Origin: an uncultured bacterium
Lineage (GTDB): Bacteria; Patescibacteriota; Minisyncoccia; Moranbacterales; UBA2206
Direction of reading: 5' to 3'
Length of the DNA: 64,000 bases
NCBI GenBank assembly: GCA_903831805.1
Contig: CAIKZD010000009.1
Location: 72,786 to 136,785, forward strand
The notes below the pieces were generated by a model. The model saw only the letters and a program-made list of their open reading frames with translations, ran no database searches and was not told the DNA's origin. Of the stretch, positions 10,267-58,462 are shown piece after piece; within the stretch, counting starts at the first letter, position 1; each line of letters begins with the position of its first letter. The translations under genes were made by a program, and so were the position numbers.

Positions 10267-10293
10267 TGCGAACGGCCACAAACCTGTGGCACC

Positions 10294-13117: not shown

Positions 13118-14290
13118 ATGAAAATAGCATTTATCGGACAAAAAGGAATACCAGCCAAATTCGGCGGCGTAGAAACATACACCGAAAATGTGGCACTGCG
13201 GATGGCCAAAAAAGGACATACGGTTTTTGCCTATACCCGAAAGAACTATACTGATCCTAAGTTGCAAGAATATAGAGGTGTGAAGCTGATTAGCTTGCCG
13301 AGCATCCCGACGAAAAACTTGGACGCCATCAGTCACACTTTTTTGGCGACGGTGCATGCCATATTTCAAGATTATGATGTCATCCATTACCATTCTATCG
13401 GACCGAGTTCGCTCAGTTTTCTAATTAGAATTTTCAAACCCCGCACGGCGGTCGTTGCGATTTTCCAATGCCAGGATTACGCGCACAAAAAATGGGGCTG
13501 GTTTGCTAAAAAATATCTTAAGTTTTCCGAATTTCTGACTTGTAAGGTGCCTGATGTGACCATTGTGGTTTCCAGCATTCTCAAAAAATATGCCACCGAA
13601 GTATATCATCAAGAAACGGTCCTGATTCCCAATGGGACTGAAATAAGACACGTCGAAAAATCCGACTACCTCGCAAAATGGAATTTGCAAAAGGGTAGCT
13701 ATATCGTGTCTATCGGACGGTTGATCCGTCACAAAGGTGTGCATTACCTGATTGAAGCTTTCAAAAATTTGGAAGACAAACATTTGACGCGTGGAAAAAA
13801 ATTGGTGATTGTGGGCGATGGTTTTCACACGGATGATTATGTCAAAGAATTGAAAGATATGGCGCGTGGCCGAGAAAGCATTATTTTCACTGGCAGTCAA
13901 ACCGGAGAAGAGCTGGATCAGCTGTTTGCGCATAGTTATATGTTTGTGCAACCGAGTGAGTCGGAAGGCCTGTCTATGGCGCTTCTGGAAGCAATGGGAC
14001 ACGCCAAGGCGATTCTTTCCAGTGATATCAAGGAAAATAAGGAACCGTTAAATGAGGCTACGGCGGTGTTTTTCCGTTCGGGGGATGCGCGGGATTTGGA
14101 GGAAAAAATGGTTTTTCTCATCAATAATCCGGCGTTGGCCAAAGAGATGGGAGACGCGGCGATGCAAAAAGCGCGCGATGAATATAGTTGGGACACGATC
14201 GTGACGCAGATTGAAAAAGTTTATGCGGATGTTTTAGCTAAGAAAAAGAAAAGTATTTTCAAGACGAAACTGCATGGGAAAAGTATTTAA
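13118..14290 (+). CDS. glycosyltransferase family 4 (DUF1972-type N-terminus)
   Basis: MKIAFIGQKGIPAKFGGVETYTENVA N-terminus; C-terminal SESEGLSMALLEAMGHAKAILSSD. Confidence 0.8.
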   Translation: MKIAFIGQKGIPAKFGGVETYTENVALRMAKKGHTVFAYTRKNYTDPKLQEYRGVKLISLPSIPTKNLDAISHTFLATVHAIFQDYDVIHYHSIGPSSLSFLIRIFKPRTAVVAIFQCQDYAHKKWGWFAKKYLKFSEFLTCKVPDVTIVVSSILKKYATEVYHQETVLIPNGTEIRHVEKSDYLAKWNLQKGSYIVSIGRLIRHKGVHYLIEAFKNLEDKHLTRGKKLVIVGDGFHTDDYVKELKDMARGRESIIFTGSQTGEELDQLFAHSYMFVQPSESEGLSMALLEAMGHAKAILSSDIKENKEPLNEATAVFFRSGDARDLEEKMVFLINNPALAKEMGDAAMQKARDEYSWDTIVTQIEKVYADVLAKKKKSIFKTKLHGKSI

Positions 14291-15299
14291 CCTAAAAACA
14301 TTTTGGATAGTTTATATTATCGCCGTTGTTGCGATTTTTGTGATGAGCGTGAATGCCGGGCGGGTGTATGAATCCGTTACTGAGGTCTTGATCATTCCCA
14401 AAAGCGACATGGCGGTGAAAAATTCCGAACAAATCATTGCCAATCTAAGCCAGCTGCCCTACACCTTAGCTTTCTATGACCGCATGGTGGCGGAAAATGA
14501 AGACGCGGCCAACGCGGCGGCGACTGAATTGCCGGATTACAAAAAAAAGGCCGACTGGAATTCCCGGCTGAAAATTATGCGGGTCGGCACCAGTGGGATC
14601 TTTAAGATTATGACGACTGACCAGGATAGATATCAAGCTGAGGTTTTGAGCTCGGAGGCCGCCAAGACTTTGGTCAGCACCGTCGGACTGTATTATAATA
14701 TTGAAACGGATCTGGATGTGCGGATCATTGATCCGACCATCACCAATTATTCCGCTGGGGCGTTCGACTTTGTGTTATTTTTCGAAAGTATCAGCGCGGC
14801 TTTTTTGGGAATTTTTTTCATCTTTTTTGTTTCTCTTACAGTCTTCGAAGAGGAAGCCATACCACAAATCGCCCGTTCTAATTTTTTCGCTTGGCCGGAA
14901 AAAGAAAGTGCTACTGAGTTCTCCATTGAAAATGCGGTCGAAAAAGTTCCGACGGAAGTCAAAAAAGAATGGACATTGCCAGTAGAAGAAAAACCATATA
15001 CTGATTTCGTGAACACCACGAGAACCGCCAGTGCTCCGGCTAATCTACCGATTGCAGAAGACGAAATTTTTTCAGATAAGGCAGGCGAAGAAAAATCGGA
15101 GTCGGAGTTCGACTCCGGAGCTCCGGAGTCGAACTCCGATTTTTCGGTGTCGGAAATAAAAGTGGAAATTCCAAAAGAAGAGTCCGCTGCCGCTCCTGCT
15201 GAAGCTATGGCGGATGAAACAGAACTTCCGATAACGCGGGAGGCGACATCGGAGGAAGTGAAGGCCAGGTTAAATAAATTACTTTCTGGAAAATTATAA
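14274..15299 (+). CDS. Wzz-like chain-length determinant protein with repeat-containing C-terminal tail
   Basis: N-terminal TM, periplasmic-type domain, second TM (FVLFFESISAAFLGIFFIFFVSLTVF), then acidic low-complexity tail carrying a palindromic in-frame element. Confidence 0.5.
   Translation: MGKVFNLKTFWIVYIIAVVAIFVMSVNAGRVYESVTEVLIIPKSDMAVKNSEQIIANLSQLPYTLAFYDRMVAENEDAANAAATELPDYKKKADWNSRLKIMRVGTSGIFKIMTTDQDRYQAEVLSSEAAKTLVSTVGLYYNIETDLDVRIIDPTITNYSAGAFDFVLFFESISAAFLGIFFIFFVSLTVFEEEAIPQIARSNFFAWPEKESATEFSIENAVEKVPTEVKKEWTLPVEEKPYTDFVNTTRTASAPANLPIAEDEIFSDKAGEEKSESEFDSGAPESNSDFSVSEIKVEIPKEESAAAPAEAMADETELPITREATSEEVKARLNKLLSGKL
15092..15146. repeat. 55-bp near-perfect palindrome located in-frame inside CDS
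   Basis: AAAATCGGAGtcggagTTCGACTCCGGAG|CTCCGGAGTCGAACTCCGATTTT; encodes ESEFDSGAPESNSDF. The opposite strand encodes the same peptide. Confidence 0.8.
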
Positions 15300-16721: not shown

Positions 16722-16809
16722 CCTTTGTCATTCCCGCGTAGGCGGGGAATCTAGTGTAAAAACTTAGAAATTTGCGACTGGATTCCCGTATACACGGGAA
16801 TGACAAAGG
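16722..16809. repeat. MITE-like palindromic element, family C (TIR CCTTTGTCATTCCCG / CGGGAATGACAAAGG)
   Basis: 88 bp with perfect 15-bp terminal inverted repeats and two internal hairpins; related copies at 21987, 40396 and 43549. Confidence 0.8.
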
Positions 16810-20475: not shown

Positions 20476-20615
20476 AGATTAATAAATATCAAATTTCAAA
20501 TGACAAATGACAAATAAATTTCAAAATCAAAATGTCAAAAATTATTTTAGGAATTGGAAATTTATCATTTCTAATTTATTTGAAATTTGATATTTGTAAT
20601 TTGGAATTTCGCTTT
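20476..20615. repeat. AT-rich palindromic repeat, family D (CAAAT/ATTTG-rich)
   Basis: AAATAAATTTCAAAATCAAAATGTCAAAAATT... palindromic; near-identical block at 46541-46660 and a related one at 36080-36175. Confidence 0.6.
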
Positions 20616-22125: not shown

Positions 22126-23127
22126 TTATGCACACAGAATTGTTTCGATTTCCTCCAAACTTTCCGCCATGACTAATTTTCTTCGCAGTTCTGAGGCACC
22201 CGGAAAACCCTTGACGTACCAGGCCAAGTGCTTTCTCATTTCGAATTTGCCAGTGTCGCCTTTGTCGGCATAAATTAATTTGGCGTGTTCAAGCATAATG
22301 TTTTTGATGTGGGAGAAATCATAGGCTTCTCCTGTAGAAACAAAACATGCGCCGTCATTGAGATGGGTATTTTTAATGCTATTAAAAATCCACGGCTGGC
22401 CCCAGGCGCCGCGGGCGATGCCGAGACCGTCGAGAGTCGGATAATCATGTAAAGCTCTCACACCATCGGCCGCAGAATTGATGCCGCCATTGGCCAAAAC
22501 AATTTTGTCCGGAATAATTTTTTTTATTTCTTCGACAATCCTGAAATCTACTTGGCCAGAAAAACCGCCTTCGTATGTCCGGCCATGCACCATGACAGCC
22601 GAATAGGGGAGGTCTTTGGTATTTTCGATAAATTCCAAGGCCGTCATATCCCTTAAACCAGCCCGGATCTTAATCGACACTGGCAAATCTGTGTTATCAC
22701 ACACGGCGGAAATGATTTCGCGCGCTAATTCCTTTTGCGGCATCAAGGCGCAACCACTGCCATGCCCGAAAACTTTTTTGGCCGGACAGCCAAAATTGAT
22801 ATCGAGCCCGTCAATTCGCAACCCCTCCCCAGCCCTCCCCTGAGTACAGGGGAGGGGGCGAGAAAGAATGCGTGTCGCCTTGGCAAAATGCTGCGGGTCT
22901 TTGCCAAAAAGCTGCACCACGTATGGTCGCTCGCTGGCATTGAATTTGACCAACTCTAAAGTTTTTTCCGGCTTAAAAAAAAGCGCGGAAACGCTGGCCA
23001 TTTCACTGTACACCACATCCGCCCCGTAGCGCCGACAAATTTCCCGGAAAGCGCTGTCCGTAATGCCGGCCATAGGAGCAAGAGCGAGAATAGGTTTATT
23101 GAGTTGAAACCAAAAATTATTTTTCAT
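22126..23127 (-). CDS. dus: tRNA-dihydrouridine synthase (contains in-frame 38-bp palindromic insertion)
   Basis: LAPMAGITD, DINFGCPAKKV and FMN-binding TIM-barrel motifs; the insertion encodes PLPCTQGRAGEGL. Confidence 0.9.
   Translation of the reverse strand: MKNNFWFQLNKPILALAPMAGITDSAFREICRRYGADVVYSEMASVSALFFKPEKTLELVKFNASERPYVVQLFGKDPQHFAKATRILSRPLPCTQGRAGEGLRIDGLDINFGCPAKKVFGHGSGCALMPQKELAREIISAVCDNTDLPVSIKIRAGLRDMTALEFIENTKDLPYSAVMVHGRTYEGGFSGQVDFRIVEEIKKIIPDKIVLANGGINSAADGVRALHDYPTLDGLGIARGAWGQPWIFNSIKNTHLNDGACFVSTGEAYDFSHIKNIMLEHAKLIYADKGDTGKFEMRKHLAWYVKGFPGASELRRKLVMAESLEEIETILCA
22822..22859. repeat. GC-rich palindromic element, family E, copy 1 (in-frame in dus)
   Basis: CCCCTCCCCAGCCCTCCCCTGAGTACAGGGGAGGGGG; reverse complement matches copies at 31373 and 31978. 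Confidence 0.85.
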
Positions 23128-23147: not shown

Positions 23148-23305
23148 GTCGTCATCCTGAGCGGAGTGATTCGCCGTTAAGGCGAAGAACGCAGTCGAAG
23201 GATCTGCGTTCCATTATTGCTAGTAATATTATATTCACAAAACCACTGGTAATACAAGGCAGATTCTTCGACTTCGCCCGAGTACGGACTTCGCTCAGAA
23301 TGACA
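23148..23305. mobile_element. MITE-like element, family A (about 157 bp, TGTCATCCTGAGCG...CGCTCAGAATGACA)
   Basis: Long imperfect palindrome with terminal inverted repeats; copies at 41119, 45638 and 55059. Confidence 0.85.
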
Positions 23306-30339: not shown

Positions 30340-32358
30340 TTACGTGATAGAGATCGGGTCGATATCGATTATCCAGCCGGTACCCAATTTTTTGAGTTCA
30401 ACTATTAATTTTTCGGGAATAAATTTGCTTTTACATTTGATGATTATTTGTCTTCTGAATCGGCCTCTGATTTTCGGGACGAAAGCCTCTTGCGCTTCGG
30501 TCACTTTGGTATCCGGTATGCTTTGCATGACAGTGGAAACTTTTTCCGTTTCAACTTCAGTTTTCCGGGCATCATAATCCTGAAAAACCAATTTAACGAG
30601 ACGTCCGAAGGGTGGAAAGGAGAGGGCTTTTCTTTCGGCTATTTCAAACTGAAAAAAAGCTTCATAATTTCGTTCCGCACTGAACCTGATTGATTTGTTT
30701 TCCGGTTGATAAGTCTGGATCACCACACTGCCGGGAAACTTCGCGCCGGGTCTGGCCACGCGGCCGGAGACTTGCACGATATTTTCATAAAACTTTTCTC
30801 CAGCCGAAAAATCAGGGATAGAAAGAGCATTATCCGTATCTATTATACCAATCAACGCGACATTCGGCAAATCCCAGCCCTTGCTGATCATTTGCGTCCC
30901 GATCAAAATATCGATCTGGCGCGCGGAAAATTCTTGGTATATTTTGGCTTGATACGCCGCTTCTTTGGCGACCTGACTATCGAGGCGCGCCACGCGAGCG
31001 CTCGGGAAAAGATTTTTGATTTCTTTTTCCACTTTCTGTGTGCCCAGTCCTACATTTTCAAAAATAATGCCCTTACATTTCGAACATTGCGGTGTGATGG
31101 ACGTTTTATAGGCACAATGCAAACAGCGGTAGTGACCCTTTTGATCATAAGCCAGCGAACGGTCGCATTTCGGGCATTTTAAAACAGTCTTACAGCTCTT
31201 GCAAACCGAAAAGCTGCTCATGCCCTGGCGATTGATGAAGAGAATCGTCTGCTGGTCATATTTCAGCGCGTAAGCAATTTCACTTTTTAGCTTTTTACTT
31301 ATACATGAGTAATTCTTCGCCCAGCGCTCTTTTTTCATGTCGACGATGACGGTTTGTGGAGAATTTGTATTGCCCCCTCCCTTGTAATCAGGGGAGGGCT
31401 GGGGAGGGGTTGTTAGGTGGGGCAAATCCAAAAGATTCATCTCTTTTTCATTTTTTGCTCGCCAATATGTTTCCACTGCCGGCGTAGCGCTTCCGCGCAC
31501 GATCGGACATTTATTAATCTCCGCCAACTTTTCTGCTACGGTGCGCGCATCATAACGTGGATTCATATCCCATTGTTTGTAGGACATATCCTGCTCTTCA
31601 TCGATAATGATGAGTCCCATTTTTTGGAACGGGGCAAACACCGCCATGCGTGTGCCGATAATGATTTTGGCCTGGCCGGATTTAACACGTTGCCAATAGC
31701 CATAGAACTGCCCCTTGGTGATATTACTACTGAGCATTACGATTTCTTCTGGCGGAAAATATTGTCCATAACGCTCCAGTGCTTGCGGCGTCAAAGTTTT
31801 TTCCGGCACTAGAATCAAAAATTGCGCATCAGGCTTTTTCTTTTTAATGGCTAAAATTGAATGAATATATACCTCAGTCTTACCTGATCCGGCCGGACCG
31901 AAAAGCAAGTATTTTGTATTTTGTTTTGCAATTTTATTTACGGCTTCTTGTTGCTCTTCCGTGAGGACAATACTCACGCCCCCTCTCCTGTACTCGGGAG
32001 GGGGTTGGGGAGAGGGTCTGCGGGTTTTCGTCCGCGCCGGCACAAAACTTTTCATCACAATCCCAAGCGGGGATATATAGTAATCTGAAATAAACTTAGC
32101 CAACTCAATCTGATCTTCCGTCAAAAAATCTTCTTCCAAAACTTCTTCGATTTTTTTTAATTCAATATTACCCAATCTTTCAAAATCTTTCCGCACCCCC
32201 AAAACAATTCCTTCAACCGTGCGGCGGAAAAGGGGAATGGACACGAGAGTGCCAACTGACAATTTCTTTTCTGATAGATAGGAAAAAGACTGACTGCCGC
32301 TCATGGGCAATTTGGTCAGCGGCACGATGTCGAGAATGAATTTTTTGGATTTAGGCAT
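30340..32358 (-). CDS. priA: primosomal protein N' (PriA helicase) with two in-frame palindromic insertions
   Basis: Walker A GPAGSGKTEV, DEAH-like IIDEEQD, Cys4-Cys4 zinc-binding region (CKSCKT...CPKCD...CLHC...CSKC). The insertions encode PSPQPPPEYRRGG and PPQPSPDYKGGGN. Confidence 0.95.
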   Translation of the reverse strand: MPKSKKFILDIVPLTKLPMSGSQSFSYLSEKKLSVGTLVSIPLFRRTVEGIVLGVRKDFERLGNIELKKIEEVLEEDFLTEDQIELAKFISDYYISPLGIVMKSFVPARTKTRRPSPQPPPEYRRGGVSIVLTEEQQEAVNKIAKQNTKYLLFGPAGSGKTEVYIHSILAIKKKKPDAQFLILVPEKTLTPQALERYGQYFPPEEIVMLSSNITKGQFYGYWQRVKSGQAKIIIGTRMAVFAPFQKMGLIIIDEEQDMSYKQWDMNPRYDARTVAEKLAEINKCPIVRGSATPAVETYWRAKNEKEMNLLDLPHLTTPPQPSPDYKGGGNTNSPQTVIVDMKKERWAKNYSCISKKLKSEIAYALKYDQQTILFINRQGMSSFSVCKSCKTVLKCPKCDRSLAYDQKGHYRCLHCAYKTSITPQCSKCKGIIFENVGLGTQKVEKEIKNLFPSARVARLDSQVAKEAAYQAKIYQEFSARQIDILIGTQMISKGWDLPNVALIGIIDTDNALSIPDFSAGEKFYENIVQVSGRVARPGAKFPGSVVIQTYQPENKSIRFSAERNYEAFFQFEIAERKALSFPPFGRLVKLVFQDYDARKTEVETEKVSTVMQSIPDTKVTEAQEAFVPKIRGRFRRQIIIKCKSKFIPEKLIVELKKLGTGWIIDIDPISIT
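31373..31409. repeat. family E GC-rich palindromic element, copy 2 (in-frame in priA)
   Basis: CCCCCTCCCTTGTAATCAGGGGAGGGCTGGGGAGGGG. Confidence 0.85.
31978..32017. repeat. family E GC-rich palindromic element, copy 3 (in-frame in priA)
   Basis: CGCCCCCTCTCCTGTACTCGGGAGGGGGTTGGGGAGAGGG. Confidence 0.85.
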
Positions 32359-40395: not shown

Positions 40396-40441
40396 GAATC
40401 AATTATCTTATACACTAGATTCCTGCCTACACAAGAATGAC
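40396..40441. repeat. family C MITE-like half element
   Basis: ACACTAGATTCCTGCCTACACAAGAATGACA matches the right half of the 43549 element. Confidence 0.55.
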
Positions 40442-40665
40442 ACGGAAAAACGACCTCCAAAATTGAGCTGTGAGCGATTTGGCATCTTATGAGATAGATA
40501 TACCTATATGAGATTAGGCCAAAGAGAGGGGCTAATTATACTAGATAAGCATCTTAGCTAGGTTAAGCCTAGAAAGGCTTTAAATGGAGTTTAAATAATA
40601 CTCAGTGTCGCATAACCTACATTATGCGACGTCCTATCTATTTCTCCATCCCTCTCCCCTAGACT

Positions 40666-40719: not shown

Positions 40720-41109
40720 CTACTCCTCCTCTTTATGCTTGCGATAATCTTCTATCGCCGCAGTCAGCGCTTCGCTGGATAGATTTGAACAATGCATTTT
40801 TATCGGCGGCAAACCTTCCAAGGCCTCAGCCACATCGTCGCGCGTGATTTTCAAAGCATCTGTGAGAGTCTTGCCTTTGGCCAAATCCGTGACCATAGAT
40901 GAGGTGGCAATGGCACTGGCGCACCCTAGGGTCTCAAATTTGATGTCCTCTATCACCTCTTCCTTTTTTTTCTTTTTCACTTTGATATAAATTTTCATCA
41001 CATCGCCGCAAGTCGGATTGCCGACGATGCCGACGCCAGAAGGATTTTTCATTTCGCCTTGATTATGCGGATGCATAAAATGCTCGAGAACTTTTTTTGA
41101 ATATATCAT
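40720..41109 (-). CDS. iscU: Fe-S cluster assembly scaffold IscU
   Basis: GNPTCGD...LGCASAIATSSM...LPPIKMHCS motifs; start placed at MIYSKKVLEHF (the ORF-track start at 41124 lies in the MITE terminus). Confidence 0.85.
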   Translation of the reverse strand: MIYSKKVLEHFMHPHNQGEMKNPSGVGIVGNPTCGDVMKIYIKVKKKKKEEVIEDIKFETLGCASAIATSSMVTDLAKGKTLTDALKITRDDVAEALEGLPPIKMHCSNLSSEALTAAIEDYRKHKEEE

Positions 41110-41118
41110 AATATAAGT

Positions 41119-41275
41119 TGTCATCCTGAGCGGAGTGAGTCGCCAACGAGGCGACGAACGCAGTCGAAGGATCTGCTATGCATTACCACAAGCATTGTGA
41201 TTTATAGTAATACTAGTGATTACACAAAGCAGATTCTTCGACTTCGTCCGAGTACGGACTTCGCTCAGAATGACA
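41119..41275. mobile_element. family A MITE-like element between iscS and iscU
   Basis: TGTCATCCTGAGCGGAGTGAGTCGC...GCAGATTCTTCGACTTCG...CGCTCAGAATGACA. Confidence 0.85.
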
Positions 41276-41282
41276 TAGTTAG

Positions 41283-42527
41283 TTAAGGGTTCTTAATTTT
41301 ATTTGCGTAGTAGTCTTCCAAAATATTGCCGGAAATTTTTCGCAGATCTGTAATTATTTTTTTGAGTTGTTTCACTGTTTCGTCGATTTCTTTTTTGGTC
41401 GTCTGTTTTCCGAGTGTCAGCCGCAATGAGCCATGCGCCTCTTCCGCTTTCATACCAAGTGACATCAGGACATGCGACGGTGAGAGCGAACCAGATGAAC
41501 AAGCGGAACCGGTTGAAGCGGCAATGCCAGCGGCGTCCAGCATGATGAGTAGACTCTCCCCTTCCACATCAGAAAAACTAAAATTGGCATTGTTAGGTGA
41601 ACGTTTTCGGCGCGATCCATTCAATTTAGTTTTGGGAATTTCTTTGAGAACTTTTTCAATCAAGTAATCCCTTAGCTCTGTGATTTTCTTACTATTCTTA
41701 ATTCGTAATTCATAATTCATAATTCCAGAAATTGCCGTGCCCAGACCAACAATCCCGGTTGAATTGAGCGTCCCGGCCCGCATGCCGTTTTCTTGCGCTC
41801 CGCCGTCCTGGATCATCTTAATGGGTGTGCCTTTTTTGACATAGAGCGCGCCAACACCTTTCGGGCCATAAATCTTATGCGCCGACATACTCATCAGATC
41901 AACGCCCAATTTTTTCACATTACAGTCAAAATAGTTGACGGCCTGCGTGGCGTCAGTATGGAAAATTAGCTGATAGTTTTTAGCCCTTAGTCTATTAGCC
42001 TCCTTTACAATCTTTCCGATTTGCATAATCGGTTGTACTGTGCCGATTTCATTGTTCACATACATTACGGTTACTAGAATAGTGTTGGGTTGGATGGCTT
42101 TTTTGACCTCTTCCACCCGAATAACCCCGTCTTTTTGCGGAGCAACATAAGTCGCCTCAATTAAACCTTCTTTTTCCAATTTTTTGATTGTATGTAGGAC
42201 ACAATGGTGTTCAAAGACTGTGGTGATAATGTGCGGTTTGATATTCCTGTTTTCTGGCTTAGTATAATACGCTTTGACCACACCCTTTATTGCAAGATTA
42301 TTCGACTCCGTGGCGCCGCTGGTGAAAATGATTTCTTCTTTATTATCCACCTCGAAAAAATCAGCTGTCACTTGGCGCGCCTTTTCCACCGCCTCACTCG
42401 CCTCCATGCCGAAGCTATGTAGTGATGAAGCATTGCCGAACTTTTCCGAAAAATATGGCAGCATACTGTCCAAAACTTTTTTATCGACCGGCGTGGTGGC
42501 CGCGTAATCGAGGTAGATTCGTTTCAT
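41283..42527 (-). CDS. iscS: cysteine desulfurase (IscS/NifS)
   Basis: PLP-binding SAHKIYGPKGVGALYV and active-site SSGSACSSGS. Confidence 0.9.
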   Translation of the reverse strand: MKRIYLDYAATTPVDKKVLDSMLPYFSEKFGNASSLHSFGMEASEAVEKARQVTADFFEVDNKEEIIFTSGATESNNLAIKGVVKAYYTKPENRNIKPHIITTVFEHHCVLHTIKKLEKEGLIEATYVAPQKDGVIRVEEVKKAIQPNTILVTVMYVNNEIGTVQPIMQIGKIVKEANRLRAKNYQLIFHTDATQAVNYFDCNVKKLGVDLMSMSAHKIYGPKGVGALYVKKGTPIKMIQDGGAQENGMRAGTLNSTGIVGLGTAISGIMNYELRIKNSKKITELRDYLIEKVLKEIPKTKLNGSRRKRSPNNANFSFSDVEGESLLIMLDAAGIAASTGSACSSGSLSPSHVLMSLGMKAEEAHGSLRLTLGKQTTKKEIDETVKQLKKIITDLRKISGNILEDYYANKIKNP

Positions 42528-43521: not shown

Positions 43522-43548
43522 TAGTTGTCTTGTATATTATACTTAACT

Positions 43549-43629
43549 TGTCATTCCCGTGAAAACGGGAATCCAGTCGCAAATCATTAAGTTTCTACAC
43601 TAGATTCCTGCCTACGCAGGAATGACAAA
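43549..43629. repeat. family C MITE-like element
   Basis: TGTCATTCCCGtgaaaaCGGGAATCCAG...CTAGATTCCTGCCTACGCAGGAATGACA. Confidence 0.8.
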
Positions 43630-45290: not shown

Positions 45291-45475
45291 TGGAGACCCT
45301 GGAAGGATTTGAACCTCCGACACATTTCATCGAATCTATCTGTTATTTTCTTTGGATTTATCGCGCGATTCAATCCAAACAGAATTACAGATACTTCAAT
45401 AAAACTCGCCTACGCGGTACTTTGCTTGGCGTCCGGATTATCATTCCGGTGCTCTACCGATTGAGCTACAGGGTC
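45291..45475 (-). tRNA. tRNA-Ile (anticodon GAT) gene interrupted by a 109-nt insertion between anticodon arm and T-arm
   Basis: 5' part GACCCTG-TA-GCTCAATCGGTAGAGC-A-CCGGA-ATGATAA-TCCGG (45475..45433); 3' part GTGTC-GGAGG-TTCAAAT-CCTTC-CAGGGTC-T-CCA (45323..45291). Acceptor halves are perfectly complementary; the insert spans 45324..45432. Confidence 0.7.
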
Positions 45476-45637: not shown

Positions 45638-45794
45638 TGTCATCCTGAGCGGAGTGAGTCGCTGACGAGGCGACGAACGCAGTCGAAGGATCTGCCAGAG
45701 GTTACCGCAAGACTTGCGATTTATAGGAAAACTAATGGTTACACAAAGTAGATTCTTCGACTGCGCCCGAGTACGGGCTTCGCTCAGAATGACA
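45638..45794. mobile_element. family A MITE-like element
   Basis: TGTCATCCTGAGCGGAGTGAGTCGC...CGCTCAGAATGACA, 157 bp. Confidence 0.85.
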
Positions 45795-45820: not shown

Positions 45821-46537
45821 TTAGTTTTTTATCACCGTCCCCTGAAATTTCCCTCCATCCAAAATATTTTTTAAATTCTTGAGATTTTTTCCGTCGGCAA
45901 TGATGACGGTGGCGTTGATTTTTTGCGCCAGTTTGGAAGCGATCGGATCGAAGGGGGCGTTGAGGCCCGGGTCCCAATGATTGCCGACAATGCGCCTGAA
46001 ATCTTTCCAGCTGATCTGTTTTATTTCTTTGGCATCCTTGAATTTGTGCGGATCTTTGTCACAAACATATTTAATATTGGAAAGATTGATGATTGTTGCG
46101 GCGCCCAAGCGTTCAGCCAAAATCGTGGCCACATAGTCCGTCGACCAACCCGGCCGCCAACCGGCTGCAATCATAATCTTCTCACCATGTGCAAAATGTT
46201 CTTGAATGTCCGCCTTGGTTTTGGGATTCTTGTTGATGCGCGGATGGGCGTAGGCCCGGAAAATAGTCTTCAAGAGATGGGCGTTCATCCGAGTGGCGTG
46301 GATCCCGAGCCAATCCTGGTCATCACGCGTGACGGAAGCTGTCACCTTGGCGGCTGCCTGGATATATTCCCTGGCGGTGTAACCCCCACCGGTGATGAGG
46401 ACGAATTTTTTACCTTTTTTAATTTCAGCAATAATTAACTCACGGAATTTTTTCAAAAATTGCCAATCAATTTTTTCCGGCACGATAAGTGAGCCGCCGA
46501 GAGAAATGACAATGATGTTGTTTTTTAAGTCAGACAT
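45821..46537 (-). CDS. amino-acid-kinase family protein, UMP kinase-like (archaeal type)
   Basis: IVISLGGSLI, VLITGGG and GWRPGWSTD motifs; start placed at MSDLKNN (the ORF-track start at 46564 lies in the AT-rich repeat). Confidence 0.55.
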   Translation of the reverse strand: MSDLKNNIIVISLGGSLIVPEKIDWQFLKKFRELIIAEIKKGKKFVLITGGGYTAREYIQAAAKVTASVTRDDQDWLGIHATRMNAHLLKTIFRAYAHPRINKNPKTKADIQEHFAHGEKIMIAAGWRPGWSTDYVATILAERLGAATIINLSNIKYVCDKDPHKFKDAKEIKQISWKDFRRIVGNHWDPGLNAPFDPIASKLAQKINATVIIADGKNLKNLKNILDGGKFQGTVIKN

Positions 46538-46540
46538 AAT

Positions 46541-46660
46541 GTTGTGTGCAATTTCAAATATCAAATTACAAATGTCAAATAAATTTCAAAATCCAAATGT
46601 CTAAATTTTTTTTAATCATTTAGTCATTAGGATTTTATTTGAAATTTGGATTTTGTCATT
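46541..46660. repeat. AT-rich palindromic repeat, family D
   Basis: AAATAAATTTCAAAATCCAAATGTC...GACAAAATCCAAATTTCAAATAAA; paralog of the 20476-20615 block. Confidence 0.6.
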
Positions 46661-46671
46661 GGGCTTTTTTA

Positions 46672-51790: not shown

Positions 51791-52993
51791 TTATTTTTTG
51801 GGTGCAGCTGTCTCTACTGCTGGGAAAACATTTTGAAAGAGAGTCTTGAACTTGTCGAAATTGTCTCCCTTGGGCAGCAGGATATCTCCAGCCACATCAT
51901 CTCGCTTGCCATACACTAAACCGACTTCCGGGTCATCCGTTCCATCAACAACTTTCTGATACAATTTATAGTCTTTCATCTGGGTATAGATATCATAAAG
52001 CCGCTTCATTTCCCAAGGTTGCATATCTGTTTTTACATTATCACCCAGATTGGTCAGAATGCCATTCAATTTGGAGAAATCGGTCAGAGTACCTGCGCTC
52101 AGAAGCTTGTCTTTAACAGCTTTCAAGACTTGTTGTTGGCGCGCCGCACGTTCAAAGTCATTGGAGGTTTCACGGGATCTGGCGTAGCAAAGGGCATCTG
52201 TCGAATTAAGGGTGTGTGTGCCGGTGTCCAATTTGAAATCGCCGTTACATTCCGGGTGAGCGTTGGTACACAATGGATAACTGGCCAGGACGCGCACTCT
52301 TTTCACCGTCCTAGTCCCCGGCCAATAAACATTAGCCGTTTTCTGATCAAATTTTCCAGTCGGCACGGTGAAGGTAATGCCATCACATACTTGCGGTTGA
52401 TTGAATTGCACTGACTCGTCGAAGGGTTTATCCAGCGTAAGGGTCACACCACCTACCACATCGATAATTTTTTTGAAACCGTCGAAGTTGATAACTGTGG
52501 CATATTGAATAGGTTGACCGGTGATGCTCCCGATGACTTGTTCCATATTAGCCATTCCTTGACCAGCCCCTTTCTGCTCGCCATAAGCATAGACGGCGTT
52601 CAATTTAGTCTTGGAGCCCGTAGCTGGATTATCCACGAACAAATCGCGCGGAATGGACATCAAGGCGGCCACATTCTGTTTCGGTTCGATGCTTAGCACC
52701 ATAATGGTGTCCGCTAGAGTTCCCCCCGCCGGATCATTAGCGCCGCGCATCCCCAAAAGCAAAACATTGATACGCCCATCCTTCTCCCCTTTCAATTCAT
52801 TGTTCACGCCGGGAATGTTATGCGCGATAGCGGAAAAAATCCCACCCTTGGAAATCTTGGTCAGGAATGAGTTGGTCTTCCATGCGAAAGCGCCACCGAC
52901 AATAATGATGACCGCGCAGGTAGGCGCAGCAATTTTAAACCATAAACGCTTATAGAATTTAACCCGACCGGCTTCTTGCTTGATATATGACAT
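51791..52993 (-). CDS. LCP family (LytR-Cps2A-Psr) cell-envelope polymer transferase
   Basis: N-terminal TM; INVLLLGMRGANDPAGGTLADTIMVLSI...SIPRD. Confidence 0.85.
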   Translation of the reverse strand: MSYIKQEAGRVKFYKRLWFKIAAPTCAVIIIVGGAFAWKTNSFLTKISKGGIFSAIAHNIPGVNNELKGEKDGRINVLLLGMRGANDPAGGTLADTIMVLSIEPKQNVAALMSIPRDLFVDNPATGSKTKLNAVYAYGEQKGAGQGMANMEQVIGSITGQPIQYATVINFDGFKKIIDVVGGVTLTLDKPFDESVQFNQPQVCDGITFTVPTGKFDQKTANVYWPGTRTVKRVRVLASYPLCTNAHPECNGDFKLDTGTHTLNSTDALCYARSRETSNDFERAARQQQVLKAVKDKLLSAGTLTDFSKLNGILTNLGDNVKTDMQPWEMKRLYDIYTQMKDYKLYQKVVDGTDDPEVGLVYGKRDDVAGDILLPKGDNFDKFKTLFQNVFPAVETAAPKK

Positions 52994-53095
52994 AAAAAAA
53001 ATTGCGAGAGCCTTGGGGGCACTCTTTTAGTTCTTAAATTTGATTAATTTAATAATTGTTTTATTAGTTATATTTTACCGCAAACCAATTCTTTG

Positions 53096-54232
53096 TCAAT
53101 CAAAACTTTCAAAAATAGACACCAACTTTTGCGCATTTCTCCTCCAGGAAAATTTTTCCGCTTGTTCGCGACCTTTTACCCTAAAATCATCACGTAAAAC
53201 GCTACTGTCTACAATCTCTCTGATACGCTCTGCCAATTCTTCGGCGGAATCCGGATCGAAAAACAAGGCTGCTTTCCCGGCCACTTCGCGGTGCGGCGAG
53301 ATGTCCGATGCAATCACTGGCGTACCAACACTCATCGCCTCGAGGATCGGGATGCCAAAACCTTCGTAGAAAGATGGAAAAATAAACACCTGCGCCAACT
53401 GATACACGGCCGATTTATCTTCAGTGTCGATAAAGCCGGGAAAGATAACTTCGTCTCGCAAATCATTTTTAAATAAAGCCGCTTCAATCTTCTTATCAAA
53501 GTTGTGGCTATTCTTGTTACCAGCCAACACCAGTGACACGCCCGGAATACTGCTTTTCATCTGAGCGTAAGCTTCAATCAGGACCGGAATGTTTTTTCTG
53601 GGCTGCAAGGTGCCGATATATAGGATGAATTTTTCCGGTAGTTTGTATTTTCCCCGGATGGTTTTTTCCAATTCTGCGGTCAGCGTTTGCGGAGAAAGAT
53701 TGATCGCATTGGAAACAATTTCAATTTTGTCTTTGGCGGCCGGATAGAATCTTTCTATTTCATCTTTAGTGAACTGACTGACTGCAATGATTTTGTCTGA
53801 GCGGCGAATGGCGCGCGGAATGAGCAGATCCAAAAAAAACAAATCCTTTTTCAAAATCATCTGGCGATAAACTTTAAAAGAAACGTCATGGATGTGCGTC
53901 ACCACCTTAACATTCTTAGGGATGCAAAAAGGCAAGATGTATTCGGTGTGAAAGACGTCAATTTTGTTTTCACGGAAAAATTTAGGCATAACCCACGCCG
54001 CCCAGATGAATTTATTCTTAGCTGGCAGCGAAATGATGCGGGCATTCTTTTTGTCACCCAGGTGCAATGTTTGCCGGATATTTTCCACAACAGCTGTATC
54101 CCTCGTATCAGTCAGCAGTAAATATTCATTTTTTTTATCCAACTCTAAGATATTTTTCGTCAACTCCAAAACCACCACTTCACTGCCGGTTTTTTGTTTG
54201 CCGATATTGCGAATATCAATTGCGATTATCAT
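53096..54232 (-). CDS. glycosyltransferase family 4
   Basis: GT-B; FIFPSFYEGFGIPILEAMSVGTPVIASDISPHREV. Confidence 0.8.
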   Translation of the reverse strand: MIIAIDIRNIGKQKTGSEVVVLELTKNILELDKKNEYLLLTDTRDTAVVENIRQTLHLGDKKNARIISLPAKNKFIWAAWVMPKFFRENKIDVFHTEYILPFCIPKNVKVVTHIHDVSFKVYRQMILKKDLFFLDLLIPRAIRRSDKIIAVSQFTKDEIERFYPAAKDKIEIVSNAINLSPQTLTAELEKTIRGKYKLPEKFILYIGTLQPRKNIPVLIEAYAQMKSSIPGVSLVLAGNKNSHNFDKKIEAALFKNDLRDEVIFPGFIDTEDKSAVYQLAQVFIFPSFYEGFGIPILEAMSVGTPVIASDISPHREVAGKAALFFDPDSAEELAERIREIVDSSVLRDDFRVKGREQAEKFSWRRNAQKLVSIFESFD

Positions 54233-54242
54233 ATATAATTTT

Positions 54243-55898
54243 TTAGTTTTCTGCTTGCGCGGCCGCTAACCACACCCACAAAAATCCCAAGAATATCCCT
54301 GCGTTAAACAGATTGAAAACAACCAATCCGAACCATCCAACTATTATAAAGAGATGCCATGTTTTTGACAATTGATTGGTAGCGTAAAAATAATGTTTGA
54401 CGGCCTGGAAAATAATATAGCCTAAGAGAAAAACTAGCGCCAAAAAACCTATGATACCCGCCCCAAGCCAGGTTTCTAAAAATATATTAGACGAATTAAG
54501 GAACACTCCGCGTCCATCGCGTCCCAGCAGCGGACCAATACTCCCCCAACCGATGCCAGCTACCGGATGATTCTTGATTTCAGCCCAAGACTTTTGATAG
54601 ATTTGCGAGCGCACGTTTACGTTTGGATCGGGACGTAAAATTTCTGTCACAAATTTCCCCGCCGTTTTTTCTTTCTCAATATCTTCCAGGTTGATATGGC
54701 GACAGCTATATTTTTCTAACTCCTCTGTGTTATCTATTTTTTCCGGCAAATTCTCATCCTTGTCGCAACTCACCGTAATTTTTTGCTCGCCTGTGCCGGT
54801 CGACTGTACGCGATTGAAAAGTTGAAAATTGCTCAGATGGAAAACATAAATAACAAGAATAGCTACAACCAAAGAAGAAACTATTTTCAACTTCAGAAAA
54901 CTGGTTTCTTTCCATCGCCAATTTTTAAACTTCAGATCAGTGAAGAAAATCAAAACGAAAATAATATACGTCGCCATGGCCGCCAGCCAAGCGGAGCGGG
55001 AAACGGTGAGAATGAGAAGGATGTATGAAATGGTCAGCAGGACATATAAAAATATTTCTGTCATCCTGAGCGAAATGACGACGCGATAGCGGAGGAATGC
55101 AGTCGAAGGATCTGCGATATATTCATCACTAGTAGTATTCAATGGCAGATTCTTCGACTTCGCTACGCTACGCTCAGAATGACAATTGCATAGCAATGCG
55201 TAAATGAGCGTTATCACTAGTACGACAAAAGCGCCTAACCAATCCGCTTCCGTAAATGTGGCATTCGGCCGCCCGAGCATCGCTTCGAAAGACTGACCAT
55301 TATGTAGAAAGATAATATTTTGCCACAGGCCATACAACATCACAACTATGGCCGAGCTCAAGAAAAATGGCACGGTTCTTTTGGCGTCGGCAGTAGTCTG
55401 GATATAATTTCTGACTAAGAAATACAGAATGACGAACGTGATGAAAATTATTTCCAATTTTAAACTTGCCATTTTGTCCGGCGAAAAAATTGCGCCCAGC
55501 AATCCGCCAATGGCCATCAAGATCACGGCATAATTTGGAATTTTCAGTTTAGCTAATTTGAAATTCAAGCGGCCACTCACTAGCCGCGCTAAAATCGCTA
55601 CCACTAAAATTGCCCCGATGAATTGATACGGCCGAATAGTAAGACCCAAACTCACCGGTGCTAAATTGATATTTTCCAGCGGCACCATCCCGCAAAAAAG
55701 CAAAAACGCCCAACTCGGCCGCCACAGCGCAAAAGCCAGCGCCAAAATCGAGAAAAAAACAAAATCCCCCAATTGCAGCGGGATTACTTGGAAATTACTA
55801 AGGATAATCAAAAAGAAAACCACAAAAACATTCACCAAAACCAGCCAGTTTTTGGGCTTGTTAAGGTTGTTGACAAATTGCTGCAAATAACTAATCAT
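54243..55898 (-). CDS. O-antigen ligase/polymerase-like membrane protein carrying an in-frame 126-bp MITE insertion
   Basis: Polytopic; ligase-like SSNIFLETWLGAGIIG motif. Residues about 238-279 (CHSERSVAKSKNLPLNTTSDEYIADPSTAFLRYRVVISLRMT) are encoded by the family A element. Confidence 0.6.
   Translation of the reverse strand: MISYLQQFVNNLNKPKNWLVLVNVFVVFFLIILSNFQVIPLQLGDFVFFSILALAFALWRPSWAFLLFCGMVPLENINLAPVSLGLTIRPYQFIGAILVVAILARLVSGRLNFKLAKLKIPNYAVILMAIGGLLGAIFSPDKMASLKLEIIFITFVILYFLVRNYIQTTADAKRTVPFFLSSAIVVMLYGLWQNIIFLHNGQSFEAMLGRPNATFTEADWLGAFVVLVITLIYALLCNCHSERSVAKSKNLPLNTTSDEYIADPSTAFLRYRVVISLRMTEIFLYVLLTISYILLILTVSRSAWLAAMATYIIFVLIFFTDLKFKNWRWKETSFLKLKIVSSLVVAILVIYVFHLSNFQLFNRVQSTGTGEQKITVSCDKDENLPEKIDNTEELEKYSCRHINLEDIEKEKTAGKFVTEILRPDPNVNVRSQIYQKSWAEIKNHPVAGIGWGSIGPLLGRDGRGVFLNSSNIFLETWLGAGIIGFLALVFLLGYIIFQAVKHYFYATNQLSKTWHLFIIVGWFGLVVFNLFNAGIFLGFLWVWLAAAQAEN
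55059..55184. mobile_element. family A MITE-like element, shortened copy (126 bp = 42 codons) inside CDS
   Basis: TGTCATCCTGAGCGAAATGACGACGCG...CGCTACGCTACGCTCAGAATGACA; no stop codon in the host frame. Confidence 0.8.
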
Positions 55899-57078
55899 TA
55901 TAATTTATCTGCTTGGATATTTCAATAATCTTTTCACAAAAGGTTTGCCAGGAGAATTTTTGAGCTTGCAGGCGCGCTCTCTCAGACAAGGTTCGGCGGA
56001 GTTCATGATTTTCTAAAACATTTTTCATCACCATCGCAATATCATGCACATCTTGTGGATTGCAATATAGCACGCCGTCACCACCCACTTCCGGGAGAGA
56101 AGAAACTTTGGAAGTGATGACCGGACGCCCGAGGTTCATCGCTTCCAGTACAGGCATCCCGAACCCTTCATAATACGACGGATAGACGAAAACGGACGCA
56201 TTGGCGAAAATGGCCGGCAGATCTTTTTGCGGCACGAGATCCAAAAGTTCGACGTGTCCTGTCAGATTGAGTTCGCGCAATAATTTTTTGATGTCGAGTG
56301 CCAGACTTAATTTCTCCGGCAAAATTTTTCCATAAATCACTAACCTTGGAATCTCAGCCATAAAATGCAACTTTTCATTGCGCTCTAAGAGAATTTTATA
56401 GGCGTGTACGACGCCTTCCACGTTTTTGCGCTTCTCATATCCCCCGCCGGCCAAAATGTAACCCGGTTTCAGTTTATATTTCTTAAGAACTTGCGCATTG
56501 TGTTCCGTCGTCACGGGTTGTTTATAGATTTCGTCTACATCGATATAGCTGGCCGTAATTTTTTTGCCGTGAATTTTCAACTGTCCAATCAGATCTTTTT
56601 CAGTGTGTTTGGAAACAGCGATGATCCGGTCCGCTTTTCGGATGGCTTTTTCGGTCAGTTTCCAATATATTTTTTTTCTTAAATTATCCAAATACTGCGG
56701 GAAAAATTTCGGAATGATGTCATGCACAACCATAATATGCTGAACTTCTTCATACGGTTCAATGATGGTTGGGCATTGGTACATACTCAAAAGAACATCA
56801 CATTTATCTTTTTTCACGGCCCGCGGCAGCAAGAATTTTTCCCACCAAATTTTGCGGGTCAAGTCGTCGCGTTTCCATGCGGGCAAGAAAATTCTTTGGA
56901 CAAAATTTGGCGGCAATGTAAAATCAGCCGGCAATTTTTCTTCCAGGTACAAAACAAAGTCGATATCCTTATAACCGGACAGCTCCCGCAAAACATTCAA
57001 CGTCACTTGGCCGATGCCCGTATGAGGTTTTCTCACAAAAGTTGCGTTGATGCCAATTTTTGTCTTTCTGCTTTTCAT
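55891..57078 (-). CDS. glycosyltransferase family 4
   Basis: [37 protein letters not shown]. Confidence 0.8.
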
Positions 57079-57175
57079 ACTCCAAATTTTACTATACTAT
57101 CCTATTTGTGTCACTTGCTCTTTTTTCCATATTCTCTTAGAATTTAACTGTGAGTGATTTAAATACCCTAAACTA

Positions 57176-58462
57176 ATGAAAATGAAAAAACAAGAAAAGA
57201 AAATTGTTTGCGTGATCGGACTGGGCTATGTCGGGCTGCCGCTGGCCGTACGCTCCACTGAAGTTGGTTACCTCACTTATGGTTTTGATTCAGACGCCAA
57301 AAAAGTCGCGCTCATCAACAAAGGGAAAAGTCCGATTAAAGAAGAATTTTTGGAAAAAAATCTGCCCAAATTTCCGGTCGTGGCTTCTCTGGATGAAAAA
57401 GTAATTGCGAAAGCGGACATCGTTCTCATCTGCGTCCCAACGCCGGTCGACAAGAATTATTATCCCGACCTTTCTCCTGTCATTGGCGCGACCAAAGCCG
57501 TCACGAGAAATTTGAAAAAAGGAGCGCTGGTAGTTTTGGAGTCGACAGTCAACCCGGGCGTGTCTGAAGAAATCATCGCGCCAATTTTCGAGGAAGCTGG
57601 ATTCAAGGTGGGGCGCGACGTTTTCATCGCCCATTGTCCGGAACGCATCGACCCAGGGAACAAAAAATGGAACGTGACCAATCTGCCGCGCGTGGTCGGT
57701 TCGTTTGACAAGAAGGGATTGGCCATGGCTATGGAATATTATAAAAACATCACCACCGGCGAAGTGCGACCGATGAAATCCATCCGCTCAGCTGAAGCTG
57801 TGAAGATTGTGGAAAATTCTTTCCGCGACATCAATATCGCTTTCGTCAATGAGTTGGCCAAATCTTTTGATAAGCTCGGCATCGACATCAAGGATGTCAT
57901 TGAAGGCGCTTCCACTAAATTTTCTTTCATGCCGCATTTCCCATCTTGTGGTGTGGGCGGCCATTGTATCCCGGTTGATCCATATTATCTCATTGAACGC
58001 GCCAAAGCTTCCGGCTTTGACCATAAATTTTTGCGGGTCGCGCGCGAAATCAATAATTCCATGCCGGAATATACCGTCAATCTTTTGCAGACCGCTCTCA
58101 ATGAAATTAAAAAATCGATGAAAGGCACGACTGTGGGCGTGCTCGGCATCGCGTACAAAGCTAATATTGATGACGTGCGCGAATCACCGGCCATAAAAAT
58201 CATTGACCTAGTCAAAAAAAAGCAAGCTAAGGTTTTGACTTATGACCCTTTTGTACCAGAAAAATCGACCGAAAAAAGTCTAGCAGCCATTCTCAAAAAA
58301 TCTGAAGCCATCATCCTGGCTACCGCTCACACGCAGTTTAAAGAAATCGACCCTTCCGTCTTCAAAAAAAATGGCATCAAAGTTATCATTGACGGGATGA
58401 ACTGCCTGGATAAAAAAGCTATCGAAAAATTAGGCATCATCTATAAGGGCATCGGGCGTTAG
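57176..58462 (+). CDS. nucleotide-sugar 6-dehydrogenase (UDP-glucose/UDP-ManNAc dehydrogenase family)
   Basis: N-terminal Rossmann VIGLGYVGLPLAV; catalytic Cys region GGHCIPVDPYYL; C-terminal UDP-binding domain. Confidence 0.9.
   Translation: MKMKKQEKKIVCVIGLGYVGLPLAVRSTEVGYLTYGFDSDAKKVALINKGKSPIKEEFLEKNLPKFPVVASLDEKVIAKADIVLICVPTPVDKNYYPDLSPVIGATKAVTRNLKKGALVVLESTVNPGVSEEIIAPIFEEAGFKVGRDVFIAHCPERIDPGNKKWNVTNLPRVVGSFDKKGLAMAMEYYKNITTGEVRPMKSIRSAEAVKIVENSFRDINIAFVNELAKSFDKLGIDIKDVIEGASTKFSFMPHFPSCGVGGHCIPVDPYYLIERAKASGFDHKFLRVAREINNSMPEYTVNLLQTALNEIKKSMKGTTVGVLGIAYKANIDDVRESPAIKIIDLVKKKQAKVLTYDPFVPEKSTEKSLAAILKKSEAIILATAHTQFKEIDPSVFKKNGIKVIIDGMNCLDKKAIEKLGIIYKGIGR

Follow-up and report, generated by a model that had tools for sequence, protein, structure and literature searches.

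Organization of the locus

The 64,000 bp stretch of DNA analyzed here (the window; contig CAIKZD010000009.1, positions 72,786 to 136,785), from the genome of an uncultured Moranbacteria bacterium, contains a glycan-synthesis cluster at 51791–58462. It is composed of a LytR_cpsA_psr gene, a glycosyltransferase family 4 (GT4) gene, a gene for a 551-residue polytopic membrane protein of the Wzy_C family (O-antigen ligase/polymerase-like; PF04932; 54243–55898, minus strand), a second GT4 gene and a UDP-glucose/GDP-mannose dehydrogenase-like gene. Within the Wzy_C gene lies a 126 bp palindromic repeat (55059–55184, minus strand) belonging to a dispersed group referred to as family A. A first-pass annotation made from the sequence alone had described it as a miniature inverted-repeat transposable element (MITE) of 42 stop-free codons with intact termini, inserted in frame in an O-antigen-ligase-like gene; sequence and translation bear out that description of the copy, and the reading preferred here, with a probability of about 0.8, is that a palindromic repeat is translated in frame as part of a functional gene.

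The in-gene copy corresponds to host residues 239–280, and its translation within the open reading frame (ORF) 54243–55898, CHSERSVAKSKNLPLNTTSDEYIADPSTAFLRYRVVISLRMT, has no stop codons; NLPLNTTSDEYIADPSTAFLR is an example of a peptide expected from the insert if it is read through. The terminus TGTCATCCTGAGCG is present without mismatch at 55059–55072 of the plus strand and its partner CGCTCAGAATGACA at 55171–55184. The mRNA strand of the host gene is the one with the 5′ arm TGTCATTCTGAGCG (55171–55184, encoding CHSER), which forms an outer stem with the 3′ arm CGCTCAGGATGACA (55059–55072, encoding SLRMT). An inner stem is composed of AGTCGAAGAATCTGC (55145–55159, encoding KSKNL) and GCAGATCCTTCGACT (55101–55115, encoding ADPST), all four arms being given on the minus strand. 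As RNA the copy has a predicted folding energy of −49.3 kcal/mol (z-score −5.6), and a terminator and promoter scan gave no signal at the element. A search with the 42-residue insert peptide against an index of 5.8 billion proteins returned no candidate, and an exhaustive phmmer search over 1.84 billion representatives gave one weak match (P0121, E 2.9e-4); a peptide of this length is too short a query for a census of host proteins.

Identity and integrity of the host gene

The host protein matches Pfam Wzy_C with 58.5 bits (cut-off 31.7) over residues 288–488, the match beginning directly past the insert, in agreement with the first-pass description of an open element in a polytopic O-antigen-ligase-like gene. 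It has 677 homologues at E ≤ 1e-5, mostly from Moranbacteria, and those that are named are from Moranbacteria or Parcubacteria. An AlphaFold2 (AF2) model has about 13 predicted helices and a large outer loop, and the outer domain contains a lineage-specific module with cysteines. The best match of this model in the PDB is the O-antigen ligase WaaL (7tpg), with weak scores (E 0.19, TM-score 0.36–0.45). The likeness to WaaL thus consists of the above-threshold PF04932 match, the polytopic helices, the large outer loop and the location in a cluster with glycosyltransferase and LytR-CpsA-Psr genes, whereas the fold match is weak and the cysteine-containing outer module is particular to the lineage. 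Bacteria of the candidate phyla radiation (CPR) probably lack O-antigen. With GT4, glycosyltransferase family 2, LytR_cpsA_psr and sugar dehydrogenase genes as neighbors, the protein is a putative ligase or polymerase acting on an undecaprenyl-linked glycan.

Orthologous genes were compiled from 79 loci of GTDB species genomes, to which the closer relatives L080 (protein P0002), L081 (P0003) and L082 (P0004) were added. In each of the 79 loci from GTDB a single reading frame covers the N- and C-terminal halves and the loop at the insertion site is stop-free, and the same is true of L080–L082; in total the loop is open in frame in 83 of 83 orthologues. The ratio of nonsynonymous to synonymous divergence (omega; Nei-Gojobori, NG86) between the window gene and L080 is 0.164 upstream of the insert and 0.129 downstream, so that purifying selection acts on each half. 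A protein identical to that of the window (P0122, on a contig of 294 kb) was called on 11 contigs, which came from several sources. Every member of its 90% identity cluster retains the insert, and the search for an element-free allele proposed in the first-pass annotation found none there; P0123 is shorter solely through an aberrant C-terminus and also keeps the insert.

These data bear on the suggestion, raised alongside the original description, that an open frame masks a pseudogene, and on the related idea of a split gene. An insert of 42 codons could disrupt a membrane protein, and the AF2 confidence of the insert is low. However, omega is low on both sides, no orthologue is interrupted across the loop, the motifs TVSRSAW and NLFNAGIF are retained downstream, the order of genes in the glycan cluster is kept in L080 and L082, and an identical protein recurs on 11 contigs; no frameshift is present in the reading frame. 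We consider a pseudogene very improbable.

In one orthologue, L065, the N-terminal part (10064–10288) lies outside the main ORF, such that a frameshift or stop is present; this may be either a sequencing error or a real disruption.

Position of the insert in the protein

In the AF2 model (mean predicted local distance difference test score, pLDDT, of 63.8) the helices are clear and residues 240–277 have a pLDDT below 50. Helix counting and the positive-inside rule place the lysine/arginine-rich (K/R-rich) loops at residues 105–120, 163–176 and 320–330 inside, and the conserved GRPNATFTEADW loop and the domain of residues 353–470 outside. Residues 238–280, and with them the insert, are accordingly predicted to lie in a cytoplasmic loop between transmembrane helices 8 and 9 (TM8–TM9). 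The site is compatible with the fold in that it falls between two predicted transmembrane helices, both of which are retained.

Orthologues that lack the insert have a K/R-rich loop of 8–10 residues (e.g. YQNKKNKW in L059). A distant Wzy_C paralogue in the window (10400–11851, plus strand; recognized by Pfam Wzy_C) similarly has an equivalent loop of about 10 residues that is K-rich (MKKQPAEKKY) and without an insert. The insertion is apparently the derived state, because outgroup orthologues and this paralogue share the loop of 8–10 residues; the distant orthologues do not carry the 42 residues.

Family A copies between genes of the window

With up to two mismatches allowed and expectations taken from shuffled sequence, the terminal motif occurs eight times in the window, as four arm pairs, whereas shuffled sequences average 0.29 occurrences and none reaches eight; the 14-nt ends TGTCATYCTGAGCG and CGCTCAGRATGACA are found on four of four copies. 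This establishes the segment as a copy of a dispersed repeat, and the three intergenic copies of about 157 bp that had been reported were recovered, each 157 bp long and on the minus strand. The first (23149–23305) starts with CGTCAT, has the same polarity as the in-gene copy and lies 22 nt upstream of the start of the Dus gene. The second (41119–41275) ends 8 nt past the stop of a class-V aminotransferase gene (41283–42527, minus strand), and the third (45638–45794) is 27 nt past the stop of ORF 45821–46564 (minus strand) and adjoins a tRNA-Gln gene. All window copies fold into one long hairpin built of two nested stems, outer and inner, to which the intergenic copies add two side hairpins; the folding energy is −75 to −79 kcal/mol for an intergenic copy, and z-scores across the folded copies range from −5.6 to −9.8.

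The three 157 bp copies are 78–88% identical to each other by BLAST, and the in-gene copy matches them at 67% when its whole length is aligned and at about 80% in the arms. Every sense frame of the three contains stops. The in-gene copy is evidently a member of another subfamily rather than a trimmed 157 bp copy, because it has no side hairpins, its frame path is a mixed one when set against the three window copies, and its 38-nt 5′ arm is 95–100% identical to copies in unrelated metagenome contigs (contigs picked with a pattern in which 25 of the 38 nt are fixed). An orthologue with 76% protein identity also has this 126 bp form, and the earlier proposal that the element was shortened after insertion, and hence selected, is not supported.

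The called ATG of ORF 40720–41124 (minus strand) comes from the terminal ATGACA of the repeat at 41119–41275; either the repeat supplies the start of this ORF or the true start is further downstream.

The TM8–TM9 loop is a recurrent site of repeats

In a BLAST comparison the orthologous genes were searched one by one against 2.3 Mb of DNA after masking of these genes. The main repeat-matching region corresponds to window residues 236–294, where 42 of 83 orthologues match 196 other places; no other credible site in the gene matched in more than five orthologues. What seemed to be a second site, at residues 19–109, proved to be an artefact of the unmasked, broken N-terminus of L065.

Inserts of family A (HSERS...SLRMT) are present in the loops of the window gene, L080, L002, L003, L010, L015 and L068, with half a copy in L081, a remnant in L001 and a partial copy in L013. 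A second family, B (VIARE...ARNDM), occupies the loop in L008, L018 and L023, a repeat of the GTCATTCCCGCG type that in L014, an AT-rich family (ISNFKFQISN) that in many orthologues, and other families with PARNASH and further motifs that in several. Repeats of no fewer than five families, those of family A in several architectures, have evidently colonized the loop time and again, always in frame.

The family A loop inserts are scattered across the tree, range in length from 30 to 147 nt, and differ in their junctions (YY|CHSER, YYFQSA|CHSER and FLRH|CHSER) and frame paths (...SKNL or ...VEES). Because of these differences and their scattered occurrence, there must have been several independent gains or replacements in the loop. 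Their polarity is identical throughout, with HSER and never HPER. Among the close relatives, L080 (76% amino acid identity) has the same 126 bp with the same junctions as the window copy. L081 keeps the 3′ half of a family A copy, and its 5′ half is another palindromic element (GTCAGAGTCTCCCGAAGGGGACTCTGAC...; L081 1530–1711). The L082 loop contains a different repeat family, and that of L001 a 30-nt remnant with both termini; all of these loops are in frame. The insertion is evidently common by descent to the window gene, L080, L081 and L001, and is old. The age and sharing of the insertion, the use of one loop by several families and the conservation described below at the nucleotide level are not part of the first-pass annotation.

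In-frame repeats are also present in other conserved proteins, including GT4 (L003) and TrmD (L038) and, in the window, PriA, Dus and the class-V aminotransferase. The L003 repeat (8529–8627) is a family B element (VIARESRDDRGNL...LRYARNDK) in the neighboring GT4 gene, and that of L038 (18606–18705) has the form ISNF...QFPISKQF. A 41-nt repeat (95% identical, in inverted orientation) is in frame in two unrelated window genes, encoding RPLPCTQGRAGEGL in Dus and TTPPQPSPDYKGGG in PriA (22819–22859 and 31372–31412), and PriA has a second related copy (31979–32016) encoding PSPQPPPEYRRGG. The aminotransferase gene, which is NifS/IscS-like, contains an in-frame repeat piece (41683–41733) encoding GIMNYELRIKNSKK, whose MNYELRIKK peptide constitutes the whole loop insert of the Wzy_C orthologue L007. 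The loop peptides of the ISNFKFQISN type appear to derive from an AT-rich palindromic repeat (AATTTCAAATTTCAAAT...) present at 20485–20604 and 46550–46663.

Smaller repeat-like pieces are found in other loops of a few orthologues, at window residues of about 138–149 (VETQNFASL or VETRLIASL), 326–345 (NLSADEAGW) and 382–388 (CGRDALQCVST), and resemble half-arms of further repeats that are common in the CPR.

Synonymous divergence within the insert

Synonymous divergence (dS) between the window gene and L080 is 0.108 in the insert, compared with 0.90 upstream and 1.27 downstream, and between L002 and L003 it is 0.099, compared with 1.19 and 1.00. In two independent species pairs the insert is therefore about tenfold less diverged at synonymous sites than its flanks, and a sliding scan of synonymous differences over the whole gene has its minimum on the insert in both. 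The window gene and L080 share 93.7% of their nucleotides within the insert, as against 76% over the remainder of the gene, and the 3′ half common to the window gene, L080 and L081 has a proportion of synonymous differences (pS) of 0.06–0.12 in all three pairs. Inside the insert the proportion of nonsynonymous differences (pN) is about equal to pS. The window copy and L080 have no changes in 58 stem nucleotides and eight in 68 non-stem nucleotides; at gene-wide divergence the absence of stem changes has P of about 1e-7. Neither arm of the outer stem differs from L080, and the sole difference in the 5′ arm of the inner stem is a C to T change in the apical pair that retains a G-U pair. It is evidently the DNA sequence of the insert that is maintained, not the peptide. 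The intergenic copies are not common to genome pairs of the window/L080 type that share the in-gene copy, and the in-gene copy is therefore older than the intergenic ones, although it has diverged very little.

The dip recurs in some pairs with loops of the AT-rich family (L038–L053, 0.14 versus 0.40; L056–L057, 0.16 versus 0.58), although in other pairs that share a repeat pS in the loop is near background (L049–L050, 0.40 versus 0.38; L032–L040, 0.44 versus 0.48; L038–L069, 0.27 versus 0.30).

Our leading guess as to the cause is conversion or recombination anchored in the conserved arms, such that the in-gene copy would be overwritten from time to time, by ectopic gene conversion from other copies of the family or by lateral exchange between related lineages that co-occur, with the nearly invariant 38-nt arms as anchors; we regard this as a tentative explanation, with somewhat less than even odds. 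It accommodates the episodic distribution of the dip across pairs, the mosaic in L081 with its replaced 5′ half, and the near-identical tract of L002 and L003, which runs 45–60 nt past the element into both flanks. The near-identity of the arms to those of unrelated contigs, subject to the pattern by which these were picked, and the constancy of arms between clades whose centers differ also fit. A donor is harder to find, however: there is no other copy of the 126 bp subfamily in the 64 kb window or in the 21 kb L080 and L082 loci, and the window's own copies are 12–33% divergent from one another. The flanks of the window gene and L080 are about 75–81% identical right up to the element, making them a poor substrate for homologous exchange, and the conserved asymmetry of the arms (41 versus 5 and 38 versus 2, described below) argues that they are not simply homogenized against each other.

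Selection on the hairpin is our second guess. The host would have recruited it, for instance as an mRNA structure that makes translation pause once TM8 is made, to serve in processing or stability, or as a signal in the DNA, and a useful hairpin would explain the repeated acquisition of palindromes by the loop; we think this unlikely. The tenfold synonymous deficit in two independent pairs, the near-equality of pN and pS, the invariance of stem relative to non-stem positions and the G-U pair retained at the one stem-end change are all expected of a selected hairpin, as are the presence of different palindromic families in the same loop and the single polarity of the family A inserts; the similarity of only 67–88% among copies within the genome also implies that homogenization with the window copies is weak, and the lack of a similar donor in the DNA compared fits as well. 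The dip is nonetheless uneven, being close to absent in the three pairs with background pS, and the low-divergence tract of L002 and L003 does not stop at the element. A bare loop of 8–10 residues evidently suffices in many orthologues, and in L001 the greater part of the element has been lost. Within orthologous lineages no double changes of a compensatory kind were observed, and there is no Rfam match.

Repeated re-insertion at the same site is a further candidate explanation of the low divergence. A broader proposal, to which we give little credence, is that the TM8–TM9 loop codons of this Moranbacteria Wzy_C family are a recurrent landing site of palindromic repeats whose nucleotide sequence, as opposed to their peptide, is actively maintained, through either an embedded functional hairpin or a drive resembling homing or gene conversion. 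In the first form the hairpin may cause translation to pause, mark a site of RNA processing or act as a signal in the DNA; in the second the drive may re-install the element at the same codons in diverging species.

Conservation in nucleotides rather than peptide, the invariant stems and the strong fold would also be expected if the 126 nt were removed or bypassed in the RNA, in an intron-like or hop-like manner, and so not translated; the window does hold a tRNA gene with a 111-nt insert. Frame and freedom from stops are, however, kept in every orthologue and every repeat family of the loop, which would be needless if the segment were removed, and no intron or ribozyme family matches even at E ≤ 10. 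In the T4 gene 60 bypass a stop codon follows the 5′ junction, whereas none is present past the 5′ junction here. Removal from the RNA is thus highly unlikely, and translation through the repeat is the reading retained below.

Distribution and structure of family A

The pattern GTCATTCTGAGCG-N(5-35)-GTCGAAGAATCT is present in 19 viral stretches and at least 118 metagenome stretches, and the GC content of stretches with family A ranges from 31 to 67% among the matches listed; copies are also present at other Moranbacteria loci. To judge from these occurrences, family A is spread far beyond the CPR. Copies are 90–165 bp in length, with T as the first base in 73 of 90 and A as the last in 74 of 91, and a covarying C...G variant; those that start with CGTC (23149; L002; L010) are a minority. 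The arms are asymmetric, the 5′ arm containing ..CATTCTG.. and ..GAAGAATCT and the 3′ arm AGATCCTTC.. and ..CAGGATG; perfect complements are the rarer form (5 versus 41 asymmetric and 2 versus 38), and the conserved asymmetry gives the element a defined polarity. Intergenic copies are often located 2–27 nt past a stop codon. There is no orientation bias among intergenic copies that follow gene ends (15 sense and 13 antisense), and the common polarity of the four window copies is therefore no general rule.

Direct repeats flanking 91 copies were scored: 54 copies have none, 25 have 2 nt, eight have 3 nt, three have 4 nt and one has 5 nt, compared with 52, 31, 5 and 3 for a control with shifted boundaries. 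Four arm pairs are separated by 446–1359 nt, and ORFs were read for two of these loci (L129 and L199), those of L129 being placed relative to the arms. The L129 pair was considered as a candidate autonomous parent and rejected, as it encloses an ordinary purine nucleoside phosphorylase-like gene. Six other metagenome copies that seemed to be embedded in genes were also rejected, being in GC-rich DNA with chance long open frames whose flanking translations look non-coding.

Rfam 15 has no family at the gathering score over the whole window, and a full family A copy gives chance-level matches only at E ≤ 10. Literature searches by sequence and by topic returned no description of family A or of in-frame repeats in the CPR.

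Several viral (IMG/VR) contigs contain multiple copies of family A, including three in tandem with 138-nt spacing in L094 (8825–9137), five in L092 and four in L099. The ends TGTCAT...ATGACA also delimit a second palindromic family, which has other arms (GTCATTCCCGCG...GGGAATGAC) and is present in the window at 16724–16806, 43548–43629 and 40397–40442; the L014 loop peptide is typical of it. Family B (GTCATTGCGAG...) also shares the TGTCAT...ATGACA ends, which suggests that family A, family B and the GTCATTCCCGCG family constitute a superfamily defined by its termini.

Interpretation and relationship to known repeats

The preferred reading, an in-frame translated repeat in a functional gene, can be set out as follows. 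The 126 bp would be a non-autonomous dispersed palindromic repeat with TGTCAT...ATGACA ends, two conserved stems and a variable center, a copy of which came to reside in frame in the TM8–TM9 loop of a functional glycan polymerase/ligase-like protein of the Wzy_C family in a Moranbacteria genome. The copy would be transcribed and translated through, contributing about 35–40 poorly ordered residues in place of a K/R-rich loop of about 8–10. It would persist because the loop tolerates insertions and because only stop-free copies of 3n length survive selection, and the repeats in the loop would from time to time be replaced, halved or deleted, always in frame.

Several observations weigh against this account. 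A neutral passenger should diverge at the synonymous rate, whereas dS in the insert is about 0.1 compared with 0.9–1.3 in the flanks, and a picture of tolerated junk is thus incomplete. The topology depends on a model of moderate quality (mean pLDDT 63.8). Target-site duplications are not above the control level among the 91 copies, and no parent transposon was found between the widely spaced arm pairs, no systematic search for a transposase having been made; mobility, and whatever mechanism underlies it, is inferred from the dispersed copies. Among about 85 two-armed metagenome copies sampled, only that of the window is in a credible gene, and residence within genes is rare for family A as a whole.

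The closest known counterparts are the Rickettsia palindromic elements (RPEs), which the review PMC10969869 describes, following Ogata et al. 2000, as dispersed palindromes of about 100–150 bp with copies in frame in unrelated conserved genes. By the same account, RPEs are read through as an extra peptide at positions compatible with the fold, have no known transposase and include insertions that are orthologous between species. The element described here is alike in being palindromic, in frame and probably read through, in occurring in several host proteins, in its position in a loop and in being shared by orthologues. It would thus work in the manner of an RPE, a likeness of mode that implies no membership in RPE-1 to RPE-10. 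It differs from RPEs in its phylum (Moranbacteria/CPR) and sequence family, in not being lineage-restricted (the same arms are present in phage contigs and across the GC range given above), in the recurrent colonization of one loop by several families across a phylum, and in the roughly tenfold lower synonymous divergence of the insert relative to the host gene. The last two, recurrent colonization and conservation at the nucleotide level, go beyond the textbook case.

In-frame fusions of small repeats to host ORFs are also described for intragenic ERIC (enterobacterial repetitive intergenic consensus) and BOX elements and for Nezha/Anabaena MITEs (PMC10969869). Family A resembles MITEs in its small size, terminal inverted repeats and many copies, mostly intergenic, often just past stops and with an occasional fused frame (PMC10969869). 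It differs in that target-site duplication is at the control level, the loci examined yielded no insertion sequence that shares its ends and could be its parent, and both stems are asymmetric. The MITE designation of the first-pass annotation consequently stands as to terminal inverted repeats, small size and dispersed copies, and fails as to direct repeats.

Repetitive extragenic palindromes (REPs) and bacterial interspersed mosaic elements (BIMEs) are palindromes mobilized by REP-associated tyrosine transposases (RAYTs), including a CGTC-tagged class (PMC3733652). Family A is similar in being palindromic, dispersed and often 3′ of genes without target-site duplication, and a minority of copies start with CGTC. 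REPs are, however, single hairpins of 20–40 bp with a GTAG or CGTC head, whereas family A has nested stems plus side hairpins over 90–160 bp and a head that is mostly TGTC (73 of 90). In size and architecture family A does not agree with REPs or BIMEs, and no RAYT gene was seen, although no search aimed at one was made.

Translated repeats in essential-looking genes, best known from Rickettsia, would thus extend to the CPR, where they appear to be common. The 83 orthologues constitute a natural experiment in which repeats of no fewer than five families have entered, replaced one another in and left a single loop, predicted to be cytoplasmic, with the frame unbroken. In the annotation of CPR proteomes, insert peptides can pass for lineage-specific domains, and the finding also bears on how small genomes tolerate selfish DNA. 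The tenfold synonymous deficit is a testable anomaly that is relevant to the choice between conversion and function as the means by which such elements are maintained.

Other features of the window

The tRNA gene with an insert (45294–45475, minus strand) is tRNA-Ile(GAU)-like, with a score of 53 bits against the Rfam tRNA model, and was not called by ARAGORN. Its 111 nt lie between the anticodon stem and the T arm and include an 88-nt partly palindromic stretch that has no other copy in the DNA compared. The window begins within a bacterial 16S rRNA gene, whose 3′ part (positions 596–1533 of the model) occupies 1–944. A perfect 38-nt palindrome, TCGGAGTTCGACTCCGGAGCTCCGGAGTCGAACTCCGA (15102–15139), is located within ORF 14274–15299 (plus strand), which has no Pfam match, and reads SEFDSGAPESNSD.

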